A stretch of 63,486 nucleotides of DNA from Candidatus Woesebacteria bacterium GW2011_GWA1_44_23 (GCA_001001045.1 LCIL01000004.1:1-63486); one strand, 5' to 3'. Positions 40,906 to 58,581 are shown, numbered from the stretch's first letter. Made by a program: numbers and translations. The notes: generated by a model not told the origin, from the sequence alone.

Positions 40906-41472
40906 TTATTGTGAAGGCCTGAGGGTTTCGGTGTAATCGGAAGCGTATTGAGTCTTAAAATCTTCTATTGTGGTTGGCGGAAAATACCAGATCTCAAAGA
41001 CTATTCCTGAATACTGGTTACCCACATAGGCGACCCCTTTGTTGGGATAAACATACAAATTAAAACTACTTGTTGAGAGGGGGCCATATAAAACATATTC
41101 ATAGCTGCCGTATTTCTCATTAATATTGGTAATACTTATTTTGTCGGACTCTGTTACTTGCTGTTTTACAAAATAAAGAACCCCAGACCGAAGATTAAAT
41201 TCGTTATTAAAATTAGGGTTACTTGACTCATATTCAAGTAAAGTGACGGCATCGTTTTGTGTTTCCTTGACCGGTGTACCCAAAGTTTTTTGGACGTCAT
41301 CTATCGTGCTGACACCCGGGGTAAGGTCGTTGTATGACGCTCCAGTTTTGGGAATTGAAGAGGTTTTTTTTTGGAGATTTCCCTTTGGCAAGGAAACAAG
41401 AATGATGTAACCGATGGAAATTACCGAAATTAAAAACAAAGGTATCAAGATTTTTTTATATTTTGTTTTCAT
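40906..41472 (-). CDS. Membrane-anchored extracellular hypothetical protein (SmpA/BLIP-like)
   Basis: N-terminal TM; LTPGVSTIDDVQKTLGTP, ITNINEKYG and YVYPNKGVAY duplicated alpha/beta units. Confidence 0.6.
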   Translation of the reverse strand: MKTKYKKILIPLFLISVISIGYIILVSLPKGNLQKKTSSIPKTGASYNDLTPGVSTIDDVQKTLGTPVKETQNDAVTLLEYESSNPNFNNEFNLRSGVLYFVKQQVTESDKISITNINEKYGSYEYVLYGPLSTSSFNLYVYPNKGVAYVGNQYSGIVFEIWYFPPTTIEDFKTQYASDYTETLRPSQ

Positions 41473-41486
41473 AGATTTATTTTACA

Positions 41487-44243
41487 TTAATTGAAAACAT
41501 ATCTCATTAAAAATTGGTAGTGGATAGGCCATTGCCGTTGAACACTCCCACACCTTGGTTCAATTATGTGTAGAGCAATTGATTCGGGTAATGACTCACC
41601 CTCATTCCAGCTTTGCGTGGCGCCGTAGAAGCAATAAGGAGCCTCGGTTTTTATACCCGGGAATCTCCTGTAGGCATCGAAGACATAGCCCGTCTTTGAG
41701 CCTCCGGCTAAGGCGTGTCCCAGTTCATGGGAAAGTATATAAAGAGCGTCGGCTTGGTTTGTAACACCTATGGGGAAGAAATCTATATATGTTCCATGAT
41801 AATAACCCCAAAAGCCATCCAGGCCGCTGGGATTGTACTTTAGGGGTAGAGACGTGTACGACATACAAACCTTGGAAACATAGCTGCTGTATTTCGAAAC
41901 CAGTACGCTTCTGGCGTAAACTATGTTCGCATAATATTGAGACGGCCACTCTTTTTCGTTGACTTCGAGGCATGCCGTAGGCGGGGTTCCAATTGAGACC
42001 GAAGCCGAACCCGACACTTCCTGTTTTGCAGCATCCTGTGTATCGGCAACAACAGTAAAAGTATCCAAGATGATCGAATCTTTGTACTCACTTCCGGAAT
42101 ATCTTTCACTGTAGGTAAAGGTGTAAGGACTGCTTGGGGATATTGAAGCCGGTACGTCCGTTGGAACCTGTGAAGGACATTTATTTGACGGCCCCGACGT
42201 TAGTATTTGGCAATCGTTACTGAAGGTAATATTTGTCAGTACGCTCTTTTTTGCCGTCACAGTAACGGTGTAGGTAATCAGTTGAGGTAAATCGGTGTTC
42301 TTGAAGGGCCCCGCGGGGCTGGCCACCTTGTCAACCTGAATATAGGGGTTTGAGCCCAAGCTGGTTAGAGATGTAGGAGGAACAATGTAAGCGCCTGAAT
42401 TGATTATAAAAAGAATAAAGGCAACAACTACGGGAAAAACCAGTAGGGTTACTATGATCGGCATTCCTATTGATGCCAAGAAGGCTCCGCCCAAAGCTCC
42501 AAGGAAAGCCGCAATTCCACTCCCAATACTTGATAAAGATGCCCCCAGAGTCGAAAGCCCGCCGTTCATAATTCCGCCGACAATTCCAACCCCTCCGCCA
42601 ACCGATAGTGCTATGCCAATGACGGAGTTGGGAAAAACGAGTAAGCCCGCGGCCAGCATTCCGCCTGATATTGCGATGAGATTCTCTTTGATTTTGGGTA
42701 AAAGGCCTTTGGCTGCTTTGATAATCTTGTTAATGATCTTTGCGCCAACCATTTCTACTAAAAACGCCCCCACGGTTCCTATTACAGGGGCAAGGGGGCC
42801 TGTCCAAGCAAAAGTCGCCGTTATTGCTGCGGCCAGTCCTGTTCCGGTTGCAGCCCCGATTGCCACCTTTGTTCCGGCTGGTGCAACCACTTTTTCAACA
42901 ACTTCTACCCCAATTTTTTCTGCAGCTTTCTTAACACCAAAATTTATTCCAGTTTTTTCTCCCAACCGGCCCAATATCGGTCCGAAACCAGAACTGATAG
43001 CTATCCTTCCAAAAAGTGAGCCTTCGGCAGCAACCCAAGGTGCAGTCTCGACAATTGCAAGTGAAGACAAACCGGACTGCGTGATTTCTGAACTGTAGGT
43101 TATAGGCAATGAACCGTCCGTTGGTAGCTTTGAAACATGGTCTTTGAGTCGTTCTCCTATACCCGACAAAATATGAGACCTTATTTCTCGTTCGCCAAAA
43201 TTTCCTACGTTCTCAAGTAGTAAGCCTTGTTGGTTTAGAGTTTCGAGATGGGGCAAAATTATTTGCTGGTTAAGATCAAAGTCTCTAAAGCCGCCCCCTG
43301 GTGTTTCAGAGATCTGGACGGTTACGTTTTCTGGGATTGTAATACCATCAATCTTGGAGACGTCGATAAAATGTTCGACTAATTCAGATTGCGCAGTCTT
43401 TTGCTCGACAAATAACCCAATTATATTTTTGAAATCCGTTTGCTTCTCGATATCCGGAACAAGTTTATTTAAAATTTTCGGACTTGCGATAATCTTTTTA
43501 GCTAAAGCAATTTGAATAACAGGAGAATTGTCCGTTAATACGTCATAGGTGGTTACAGCAGCCTGTTCACTCGCAATTTGAAGTTCATCCGTTGTTACAC
43601 CTTTGATATTGGAATTACTTCTAAACCGTTTTGCCGCGTCTTCTATAAACTTCTTGGGATCAGCTTTGGCCTGTTGCTTCAGGCTCTCAACTGCCTGAGT
43701 TGCCGCTACCGGATTTTTTTCAACTTTAAAGTAAACCTTTTGGTTTACAAGCGCCCCCCTTATTGCATCGGCTTTTCTTACCTCGTCCAAAACGGCCACT
43801 CTTTGTTCTTTGACTGCATCTTCCTGCGTTTTTTTCCGTAAGGATTCCTTTGCCAAGTCTTCTTTTGTTTCTACCACCTTCTCAACATTCTTTTTGGCTT
43901 CCCGCGCTGCCGCCTGCTGAGCCTCGGCCCTTTTTTTGCCCTCTTCCTCAAGCGTTTCAAGCTGTTCCTTTGTGGGCCTATTTGCCTTGGGTGCTTCTTC
44001 TGCTTCTACTAATTTCTCGACAGCCAACTGGGCCTTTTTAATATTTTCAAAGTCCTTCTCCGATTTTATCTGGACACCTGTGAGTCTATATACAAAACCC
44101 ATAAATTCTTTCCGGTTATCCCAATTGAATTCACCTGAAGTGTAGGGTTTGTCGGTTGAATAGATGGTGTCTTCGGGGAAGAAGTGGGAAAATGCTTCTC
44201 TGATATATTTTACGTTTTCTTTTGAGAGGCTTATGTTTGCCAT
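41487..44243 (-). CDS. Large T4SS-associated membrane protein: coiled coil, Gly/Ala-rich TM bundle, Ig-like domain, HExxH domain
   Basis: Charged helical N-terminus; hydrophobic GA-rich segment; VDKVASP...ITYTVTVTA; YILSHELGHAL (41715-29) with downstream ESLPE. Confidence 0.75.
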   Translation of the reverse strand: MANISLSKENVKYIREAFSHFFPEDTIYSTDKPYTSGEFNWDNRKEFMGFVYRLTGVQIKSEKDFENIKKAQLAVEKLVEAEEAPKANRPTKEQLETLEEEGKKRAEAQQAAAREAKKNVEKVVETKEDLAKESLRKKTQEDAVKEQRVAVLDEVRKADAIRGALVNQKVYFKVEKNPVAATQAVESLKQQAKADPKKFIEDAAKRFRSNSNIKGVTTDELQIASEQAAVTTYDVLTDNSPVIQIALAKKIIASPKILNKLVPDIEKQTDFKNIIGLFVEQKTAQSELVEHFIDVSKIDGITIPENVTVQISETPGGGFRDFDLNQQIILPHLETLNQQGLLLENVGNFGEREIRSHILSGIGERLKDHVSKLPTDGSLPITYSSEITQSGLSSLAIVETAPWVAAEGSLFGRIAISSGFGPILGRLGEKTGINFGVKKAAEKIGVEVVEKVVAPAGTKVAIGAATGTGLAAAITATFAWTGPLAPVIGTVGAFLVEMVGAKIINKIIKAAKGLLPKIKENLIAISGGMLAAGLLVFPNSVIGIALSVGGGVGIVGGIMNGGLSTLGASLSSIGSGIAAFLGALGGAFLASIGMPIIVTLLVFPVVVAFILFIINSGAYIVPPTSLTSLGSNPYIQVDKVASPAGPFKNTDLPQLITYTVTVTAKKSVLTNITFSNDCQILTSGPSNKCPSQVPTDVPASISPSSPYTFTYSERYSGSEYKDSIILDTFTVVADTQDAAKQEVSGSASVSIGTPPTACLEVNEKEWPSQYYANIVYARSVLVSKYSSYVSKVCMSYTSLPLKYNPSGLDGFWGYYHGTYIDFFPIGVTNQADALYILSHELGHALAGGSKTGYVFDAYRRFPGIKTEAPYCFYGATQSWNEGESLPESIALHIIEPRCGSVQRQWPIHYQFLMRYVFN

Positions 44244-44245
44244 TT

Positions 44246-57697: not shown

Positions 57698-57700
57698 TTA

Positions 57701-58018
57701 TTAAAATATCTGCCCAAAGAGCGTATTCTCGATTCCAAAAACTTGTCCAAATAGTTGAACTATAAAATACGCAAAGATAATTACCACAAAGCCGATTAAC
57801 GCGTTTGTTATCTTGGCCTGTGCCGATTGCATTGCCTTGGGGTCCCCCCGCGAAGTCATCATCTGTAGGCCCCCCATGACCAGGTAAACCAAGAGGGCAA
57901 TTCCTGCAGCACCAAAAACATATGGCAGCGCATTTCCGATTAGACCGGCAATGTCAGCCGGGATTTTGTTCCCTAAGGCACTTGCTTGAATTTCTTCCAG
58001 GTTTTGAGCTAATAACAT
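57701..58018 (-). CDS. VirB2/TrbC-like pilin 2
   Basis: GGLQMMTSRGDPKAMQSAQAKITNALIGF. Confidence 0.85.
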   Translation of the reverse strand: MLLAQNLEEIQASALGNKIPADIAGLIGNALPYVFGAAGIALLVYLVMGGLQMMTSRGDPKAMQSAQAKITNALIGFVVIIFAYFIVQLFGQVFGIENTLFGQIF

Positions 58019-58029
58019 AAATTGTTAAA

Positions 58030-58581
58030 CTACGGGGTTGCCCCGAAACCGAACTGATCTAATCCCAGTATATCAATTCCAATAAATTTAAGTACAAATA
58101 TCGAAAGCACCAAAAGAATAAGACCCGAGATCGCAGAAGTCAAAAGTTCTTGTCCTGCCTTGAGCCGCTCGGGGCTTCCGGACGCGGTCATAATCATAAA
58201 TCCTGCATAGAGAATCAGGAGAAAGGCAATCCCGCCCCCGATCCCGACAGCCCACTTTAATATATCCGACAAGAAGGCCTCTGGAGAGTCAAGAACGCGG
58301 ATGCAGCCGATGGCAGTGTTAATCCCGTTTTCGTTTTCAGCGCATTTAACACCACCAGTAACCGGTGTGGTTGGATCTGGACGACAGGTACACTCGCACA
58401 AAGCAGAAGAAGCGCATGTTGGATGATATCCCTCATCACAGTTGTCTAGTCTTTGTATGCACTGGTCTGTAAGAATCGGGTTGCAATCACAAGTGCCTTG
58501 GGCGCGGCTGTTTTTCGGAGCGATGAAAAAGAAGATGGAGATAAAAAACAAAACCACAAATAATATTCTTTTCATTACCAT
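58030..58581 (-). CDS. VirB2/TrbC-like pilin 1 with signal peptide and Cys-rich N-terminal head
   Basis: Signal peptide ..NSRA-Q; 10 Cys; INTAIGCI; AGFMIMTASGSPERLKAGQELLTSAISGL. Confidence 0.82.
   Translation of the reverse strand: MVMKRILFVVLFFISIFFFIAPKNSRAQGTCDCNPILTDQCIQRLDNCDEGYHPTCASSALCECTCRPDPTTPVTGGVKCAENENGINTAIGCIRVLDSPEAFLSDILKWAVGIGGGIAFLLILYAGFMIMTASGSPERLKAGQELLTSAISGLILLVLSIFVLKFIGIDILGLDQFGFGATP

Follow-up and report, generated by a model that had tools for sequence, protein, structure and literature searches.

An eight-pilin gene cluster for type IV secretion beside dnaA and dnaN in a Woesebacteria genome, probably co-opted from conjugation machinery

The stretch of DNA considered here, called the window, comprises 63,486 nucleotides from Candidatus Woesebacteria bacterium GW2011_GWA1_44_23 (GCA_001001045.1, LCIL01000004.1:1-63486). 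At 40906-58581 it carries a cluster of type IV secretion system (T4SS) genes, which had been described from the sequence alone in what we refer to as the original prediction. The cluster proved to be real: open reading frames (ORFs) of the minus strand occupy all of 40906-58581, one plus-strand gene lies inside, and the predicted coordinates, gene calls and core components were borne out. Read along the minus strand from 58581 to 40906, the order is eight pilin genes, the genes for proteins of 878 and 562 amino acids (aa), a 756-aa gene on the opposite strand, a 239-aa ORF, PrgI, a 231-aa protein, VirB4, and proteins of 918 and 188 aa. The cluster is thus composed of a VirB4/TrsD-like/PrgI core, one membrane protein of polytopic topology, a pair of large extracytoplasmic proteins with hydrolase-type C-terminal modules (in the 878-aa protein a probable one), and eight pilins, all adjacent to the replication origin (oriC). 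As predicted, the cluster reaches right up to dnaN, which ends at 40899 and leaves a spacing of 6 bp. The window is part of the chromosome of an ultrasmall, small-genome bacterium of the Microgenomates/Woesebacteria kind; the nearest relatives of its VirB4 belong to Woesebacteria and to metagenome-assembled genomes of Microgenomates (87-90% identity), and two further NCBI assemblies, GCA_001793535.1 and GCA_001793355.1, carry identical genes. We conclude that the locus is probably the chromosomal and vertically inherited T4SS typical of the Patescibacteria, derived from MPF-FATA conjugation machinery and turned to a role other than conjugation at the cell envelope.

The identity of VirB4 can be regarded as secure from profile and PDB sequence matches, and its profile score places it in the monoderm CD1110/MPF-FATA lineage. 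The protein matched PF19044 (E 2.5e-29) and the Thermoanaerobacter VirB4 of PDB entry 4ag5 (E 7.5e-46), and with 369.6 bits it passed the curated cutoff of 325 of the NCBIfam model NF045971, the 'CD1110 family'. For comparison 80 loci (numbered with the prefix L) were fetched via VirB4 from the GTDB representatives, one genome per species, and every window protein was mapped onto them. VirB4 identity across these loci was 57-90%. The 231-aa protein encoded next to VirB4 matched the TrsD model NF041427 (E 4.7e-7, under the curated cutoff) and the N-terminal part of NF045975, its orthologues matched PF26593 (TraC-like), and its gene was found in 74 of the 80 loci. Two loci contain a single ORF covering both this gene and virB4 (L021:1877-4381, 834 aa; L043:390-2834, 814 aa), either a natural fusion or a frameshift artefact, which ties the TrsD-like protein to VirB4. 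A profile comparison by hhalign of the 231-aa family with the N-terminal domain of VirB4 was not significant (P 0.058); we call the protein TrsD-like because of the NCBIfam match, the Pfam matches of its orthologues and the two joint ORFs. PrgI is encoded two genes upstream of virB4, beyond the TrsD-like gene, and was found in 72 of the loci. It has two transmembrane (TM) segments, scored at the threshold of PF12666 (27.9 bits, cutoff 27) and gave a match to CarboxypepD_reg under the cutoff (E 1.8e-4). The labels VirB4, VirB4-associated protein and PrgI of the original prediction are therefore retained, the second one now as TrsD-like.

The surroundings of the core are strongly conserved. Across the 80 species-level genomes, from Woesebacteria, Gottesmanbacteria, Pacebacteria, Daviesbacteria and others, the order jag-yidC-rnpA / dnaA-dnaN / T4SS genes is kept. 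Both dnaA and dnaN lie at most 10 kb from virB4 in 64 of the 80 loci, among them loci of Gottesman-, Pace-, Davies-, Curtiss- and Beckwithbacteria, and the median gap between virB4 and dnaA is 2.9 kb. The VirB4/TrsD-like/PrgI block is present in 72-74 loci, and throughout the Woesebacteria-like set we found the order (partner)-hydrolase protein-VirB4-TrsD-like-PrgI-[opposite ORF]-polytopic protein-878-aa protein-pilins. The identical eight-pilin architecture, between dnaN and a SpoIID gene, recurs on two more contigs to which another gene had led (L082 and L088). In the same genome pairs VirB4 was 81-90% identical, compared with 65-84% for DnaA and 52-75% for DnaN. Conserved synteny together with a VirB4 more conserved than DnaA and DnaN argues for a core machine passed on vertically, as opposed to a mobile element; on these comparative grounds the pattern is read as the signature of an essential, vertically inherited machine.

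A search for mobility genes points in the same direction. Relaxase, type IV coupling protein (T4CP), VirB11, integrase and recombinase domains were not found in the window proteins scanned, and direct repeats of at least 15 nt bracketing the cluster were not found either, as the original prediction had it for integrase, relaxase, VirD4, VirB11 and att repeats. The sole tRNA of the window is located at 17837, 23 kb from the cluster, and the GC content is continuous from the flanks into the cluster. The cluster could still be the remnant of an integrative and conjugative element (ICE), or an active one, if relaxase, T4CP and integrase were situated outside the window or were too divergent to be recognised. 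Its VirB4 does belong to a conjugative family (NF045971), the evidence spans only 63 kb of the genome, and very different relaxases are conceivable according to the phylum survey by Quinonero-Coronel et al. (2025; Microb Genom, PMC12102498). An ICE, however, would hardly keep the same position on the dnaA/dnaN side in most species-level genomes of several candidate phyla, lack an integrase, an adjacent tRNA and flanking repeats, match its flanks in GC content and carry a VirB4 more conserved than DnaA and DnaN. The distribution over 80 species-level loci is the opposite of the patchy spread of an ICE. We therefore rejected the ICE hypothesis, which is largely refuted by synteny and to which we give only a very slight probability. 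The proposal of a domesticated, relaxase-free and origin-linked T4SS was upheld by the synteny and by the lack of mobility genes in the window.

At the end of the cluster opposite to dnaN lie the eight pilin genes. As predicted for VirB2-like pilins, all eight products matched PF18895 ('T4SS_pilin'), six of them above the gathering score; the pilins 56261-56650 and 57026-57379 reached 21 bits (E about 3e-4). The eight sequences align as a two-helix hairpin with 20-36% identity to the first one, and the last pilin (58030-58581) carries an N-terminal extension rich in Cys as well as a signal peptide. Comparison of the pilin alignment with VirB2 by hhalign was not significant. Each pilin of the window finds its best match in the pilin of the same rank in L082 (L082:16439-19036), giving a diagonal score matrix, and the pilins of L088 (L088:14635-17486) are likewise one-to-one and collinear with the window array. 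Collinear orthologues are also present in L001, L004, L005, L007 and L014, where the loci reach the array. Since the orthologues are one-to-one and collinear across species, the array must be ancient, with each paralogue kept separately. This argues for eight specialised subunits, as judged from their sequences, possibly comparable to major and minor pilins. Recent amplification and antigenic-variation cassettes were considered as origins of the array and rejected, as each paralogue has its own collinear orthologue.

Between the pilins and PrgI two proteins had been labelled VirB1-like and VirB6-like. A signal peptide and at least seven hydrophobic or TM segments were recognised in the 562-aa protein, which keeps a fixed position beside the block of pilins and 878-aa protein and has more than 1133 homologues, none of which is annotated. 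It gave no Pfam, NCBIfam or PDB sequence match; PF04610 (TrbL) was matched by one of 18 orthologues (E 0.0015), and hhalign of its family against VirB6 of A. tumefaciens was not significant (P 0.05 over 12 columns). The label 'VirB6-like' thus lacks a sequence or profile match to PF04610 or to the model VirB6, whereas the polytopic topology (at least five hydrophobic helices being expected) and the position fit, and we treat the protein as a VirB6 candidate by position and topology. This agrees with the remark in the phylum survey that VirB6 is 'scarce' in Microgenomatia through divergence (PMC12102498).

The 878-aa protein consists of a conserved, beta-rich N-terminal part of about 600 aa, for which no fold match was obtained, and a C-terminal domain of about 240 aa. 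Foldseek matches of the AlphaFold (AF2) model (pLDDT 82) were weak (E 0.4-5) and were all muramidases or lytic transglycosylases, namely Tse3, phiKZ gp144, SltB3 and Slt. Glu697 belongs to a G-E-G-x-F-N motif and does not vary among 61 homologues, and two of 11 orthologues carry SLT_3 (PF18896) in the same C-terminal slot. A profile of the C-terminal domain found nothing significant in the PDB, its top matches being spurious prion proteins, and the PDB sequence searches with the 756-, 878- and 918-aa proteins and with the family profiles of the 878-aa and 562-aa proteins gave nothing significant. A lysozyme-like domain at the C-terminus is probable. Of the label 'VirB1-like', the weak fold hints and the invariant glutamate speak for the muramidase part; a significant profile match to go with them was not obtained.

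A second hydrolase slot follows directly after virB4. The 918-aa protein encoded there has a charged N-terminal part, a TM-rich middle and a C-terminal zincin module (HELGH...E-x-x-x-E) with the HELGH at residue 839. Its orthologues share the TM-rich middle and differ in the C-terminal enzyme module: among 19 of them nine carry Peptidase_M23, one CHAP and one NAGPA, and eight, the window included, an HExxH with a downstream E-x-FAE-type motif, a gluzincin-type module that may resemble zincins such as MtfA or lethal factor. The hydrolase modules of the original prediction are thus confirmed as a swappable slot. The small 188-aa protein (p188) encoded next to it matched no Pfam or NCBIfam family and has one TM segment (residues 8-26). 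It was seen only together with HExxH-type proteins and immediately downstream of them, in all nine informative loci (the window, L003, L005, L011, L016, L021, L029, L036 and L057), in two of which the HExxH protein is located elsewhere or is shorter; it was absent from the M23-type loci inspected. Behind the other modules come different small proteins with an N-terminal anchor, for instance a Big_5 protein after the CHAP type. p188 was also considered as an analogue of VirB8; because it is restricted to one module type it is unlikely to be a core component. Its strict co-occurrence with the HExxH variant supports the suggestion of a possible immunity gene made in the original prediction. From this covariation the 918-aa protein and p188 look like an effector with its cognate immunity or partner protein, the neutralisation being putative. 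In Southlakia epibionticum peptidase and lysozyme genes downstream of virB4 are reported as essential (PMC12102498), in agreement with the hydrolase cassette of the present locus.

The most variable part of the cluster is the slot between PrgI and the polytopic gene. One opposite-strand ORF of 528-1076 aa was present there in all 14 loci inspected, and we found the slot occupied in L001, L003-L005, L007, L008, L010-L012, L014, L015, L023, L040, L077, L082 and L088. Between genomes with VirB4 proteins 72-90% identical, the encoded proteins can hardly be aligned. At 89% identity of VirB4 the slot protein has about 24% identity over half its length, and in its rate of evolution it outpaces every neighbour. 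The 756-aa protein of the window has just 22 close homologues. An exhaustive search of 1.84 billion representatives yielded 78 clusters with a smooth gradient of E-values and mostly full-length matches, and a remote member of the family (E 5e-12) is encoded in the same slot within the same architecture. Run against every ORF of the loci, the family profile gave its best non-trivial matches with the genes at the equivalent position in L001 and L007, in several collinear fragments (E 0.003-0.02). Because of the positional profile matches, the smooth gradient and the remote member in the same slot we conclude, at the level of sequence, that the slot proteins form one extremely fast-evolving family and are not unrelated insertions. 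The 756-aa protein has neither signal peptide nor TM segment, and its first 74 residues are disordered. Its AF2 model is confident (pLDDT 73.5, pTM 0.76), and Foldseek of this model against the PDB and BFVD gave no match at E <= 0.001. Our favoured guess, held with low confidence, is that it is a translocated substrate or a host-specificity factor.

The cluster could be a contact-dependent weapon or feeding device directed against a host bacterium, with the 756-aa protein and the 918-aa protein as host-specific payloads encoded within it and p188 as immunity protein, so that polymorphic effectors would be delivered through a monoderm T4SS without a coupling protein; the 756-aa protein may then be a translocated effector or a determinant of host range. 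We regard this as a tentative proposal of low probability. The apparatus could also be an adhesive pilus only, transferring no substrate, with the hydrolases letting the pilus through the cell's own wall. The eight conserved pilin paralogues and the missing coupling protein in the window would suit such a pilus. Evolution in the cluster is fastest, however, in a soluble protein that has neither signal peptide nor TM segment and in a hydrolase module whose partner co-varies with it. Delivered effectors and immunity account for this pattern better than a structural pilus alone would, and we consider the pilus-only explanation unlikely.

In the co-opted machine that we favour, VirB4, the TrsD-like protein and PrgI would drive a membrane channel of which the polytopic protein is a part, and the eight pilins would build a heteromeric pilus or conduit at the surface. 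The hydrolase modules may open peptidoglycan, that of the cell itself, that of the host or both. The apparatus would mediate contact-dependent exchange with a host bacterium, most likely as protein export, and the 756-aa protein and the module-swapping 918-aa protein with its small partner would be the best candidates for host-specific effector and immunity parts. We also considered the reverse direction of transport, in which DNA, nucleotides or other macromolecules of the host would be taken up by a machine resembling the Helicobacter ComB or the archaeal Ced system. Patescibacteria, which lack nucleotide synthesis, could make use of such a machine, CedB (E 4.4e-12) and CedD, both ATPases of DNA import, were weakly matched by VirB4, and in the class ABY1 T4SS loci sit with comF, recG and radA (PMC12102498). 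The CedB score, however, is far under the family cutoff (45 versus 700 bits), no DNA-handling gene was found in or beside the cluster, and deletion of comEC in S. epibionticum abolished competence and not viability, while the T4SS is essential (PMC12857230). Protein export is favoured over DNA import because of the lack of DNA-handling genes here and because ComEC is dispensable in S. epibionticum while the T4SS is not; uptake we judge to be improbable.

Several points weigh against the reading of a co-opted T4SS that exchanges material with a host. The channel protein is not demonstrably a VirB6, and no VirB8-like protein was found in the cluster. Many T4CP homologues in the phylum are encoded far from virB4, as stated in the survey (PMC12102498), and a T4CP or a relaxase could likewise lie outside the window. 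The hydrolases might only remodel the cell's own wall. Finally, the locus was absent from the metatranscriptomes of the same studies, whose contigs gave only chance matches of 18 nt.

Table 1. Genes of the T4SS cluster and the adjoining origin genes (positions in the window)
Feature	Position	Strand	Remarks
dnaA	38169-39557	+	From the translation; marks the replication origin
dnaN	39790-40899	+	From the translation; converges on the end of the T4SS cluster
188-aa protein	40906-41472	-	N-terminal membrane anchor; candidate partner or immunity protein of the HExxH module
918-aa membrane protein	41487-44243	-	C-terminal HELGH zincin module; hydrolase-module slot directly after virB4
VirB4 ATPase	44246-46114	-	Monoderm CD1110/MPF-FATA type
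TrsD/TraC-N-like VirB4 partner	46089-46784	-	231 aa
PrgI/VirB3-like protein	46789-47859	-	C-terminal beta-sandwich-like extension
239-aa ORFan	48051-48770	-	Strain-specific insertion
756-aa soluble protein	48877-51147	+	Hypervariable; divergently transcribed
562-aa polytopic membrane protein	51150-52838	-	VirB6 analogue by position and topology only
878-aa secreted protein	52874-55510	-	Cys-rich; probable C-terminal lysozyme-like domain
Eight VirB2-like pilin genes	55553-58581	-	PF18895; 55553-55825, 55878-56210, 56261-56650, 56652-57026, 57026-57379, 57380-57697, 57701-58018, 58030-58581

Some features of the region stand apart from the machine itself (Table 1). The 239-aa ORFan between PrgI and the hypervariable gene had no match in the 80 loci, in L082 and L088 or in any family, and it is called as a gene only in assemblies with the identical sequence; it encloses a perfect DnaA-box nonamer (48553). 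Perfect DnaA boxes are also present at 38093 and 39603, on either side of dnaA, the cumulative GC skew has its minimum at 37-39 kb, and the classical origin set jag-yidC-rnpA / dnaA-dnaN occupies 36-41 kb. Irrespective of the strand that carries dnaA, transcription of virB4 runs toward it in 62 of the 64 origin-linked loci (L001-L078). The operon would therefore run head-on to replication, provided that oriC is at dnaA; as the loci are phylogenetically related, only few independent events stand behind this figure.

On the other side the pilin array adjoins a SpoIID-domain gene (58641-60218, plus strand) that is interrupted by a TAA in frame (59016-59018). At exactly this point 46 residues of the 593-aa L082 orthologue are missing from the window; this is either a pseudogene or a gene split into two. 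The left two thirds of the window contain housekeeping genes identified by Pfam, such as UvrD-type helicases, MetRS, glycosyltransferases and TsaD/TsaE, and GroES/GroEL, ValRS and L25, which were identified from their translations only. A stand-alone Peptidase_M23 protein (17979-18665, plus strand) and a VanW protein with a peptidoglycan-binding domain (24108-25868, plus strand) are encoded elsewhere in the window and are not linked to the T4SS cluster. The original prediction had also named several promoters. The scan for promoters and terminators counted 39 consensus sites, compared with 29.9 +/- 4.9 expected from shuffled sequence, which is not above chance; the best single promoter site (11 of 12 matches) is situated at 56248-56219, between the pilin genes 56261-56650 and 55878-56210.

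The class to which the cluster belongs, a relaxase-free T4SS near the origin with a pilin array, was published between 2023 and 2025, so that the locus was correctly recognised and the class, as the original prediction itself stated, is not new (PMC10633639, PMC12102498, PMC12857230). By transposon sequencing Wang et al. (2023; Cell, PMC10633639) showed the T4SS genes SEML1_0006-0019 of S. epibionticum, including a series of pilins, to be essential for growth as an epibiont, and they could recognise neither a relaxase nor a coupling protein for this system. Few machines have been shown to be essential to cultivated Patescibacteria in their epibiotic life, and the T4SS is among them. The phylum survey, which includes the Microgenomatia, describes a monophyletic VirB4 clade related to MPF-FATA, with TrsD as the commonest neighbour of virB4, relaxases almost absent, DnaA and DnaN abundant near virB4 in Paceibacteria and Microgenomatia, and arrays of 2-11 pilin genes that are abundant in Microgenomatia (PMC12102498). 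A FEMS review of 2025 repeats this picture (PMC12857230).

The window shows no categorical difference from the Patescibacteria clade: a FATA-related VirB4, TrsD beside virB4, PrgI/VirB3 and PF18895 arrays are all matched here, and so are, within the window, the lack of a nearby relaxase or T4CP and the closeness to dnaA and dnaN. The combination of traits that the original prediction stressed is not new, as pilin arrays, the missing relaxase, the proximity to dnaA/dnaN and co-option are already contained in PMC12102498 and PMC10633639. Two differences are of degree. VirB3 is described there as rarely associated with virB4, whereas PrgI lies close to virB4 in most of our loci; VirB6 is described as scarce in Microgenomatia, whereas a conserved polytopic candidate is encoded here 3 kb further on. 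The hypervariable opposite-strand gene is not mentioned in the portion of the survey used. The locus is therefore no new class but a clean example from Microgenomatia/Woesebacteria, and it offers candidates for missing parts: a VirB6 analogue, cassettes of hydrolase and partner, and a hypervariable soluble protein as a possible substrate or host-specificity factor. If the 756-aa protein were a substrate, the question of the cargo of the Patescibacteria T4SS would become directly testable.

With the conjugative MPF-FATA systems of monoderm bacteria (Prg/Pcf of pCF10, Trs of pGO1, the C. difficile conjugative transposon CD1110) the cluster has in common a VirB4 above the CD1110 cutoff, a TrsD-like and a PrgI-like protein, and its membrane-anchored M23 and CHAP orthologues recall the VirB1 analogues of the PrgK/TraG type. 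Unlike these systems, the window cluster is without relaxase, T4CP and surface adhesin, and in place of mobility it shows a chromosomal, syntenic position. Its VirB2-type pilins have no counterpart in Gram-positive systems (PMC12857230).

The pairing of module and partner has a counterpart in a more distant system. The X-T4SS of the Xanthomonadales kills bacteria by means of X-Tfe effectors, against which X-Tfi proteins confer immunity; it is a diderm VirB/D4 system in which VirD4 recognises a C-terminal signal of the effector. Both would be T4SSs aimed at bacteria, with peptidoglycan-hydrolase modules and an adjacent small anchored cognate gene, and the covariation of module and partner seen here follows the logic of the X-T4SS, with a putative immunity role for p188. 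Neither VirD4 nor the C-terminal effector signal of the X-T4SS was found in the present cluster. Beyond the literature consulted, our analysis adds the hydrolase/partner cassette, the hypervariable gene, the old pilin array and the orientation of virB4 toward dnaA; of these, the cassette and the hypervariable gene are the leads that deserve to be followed up.

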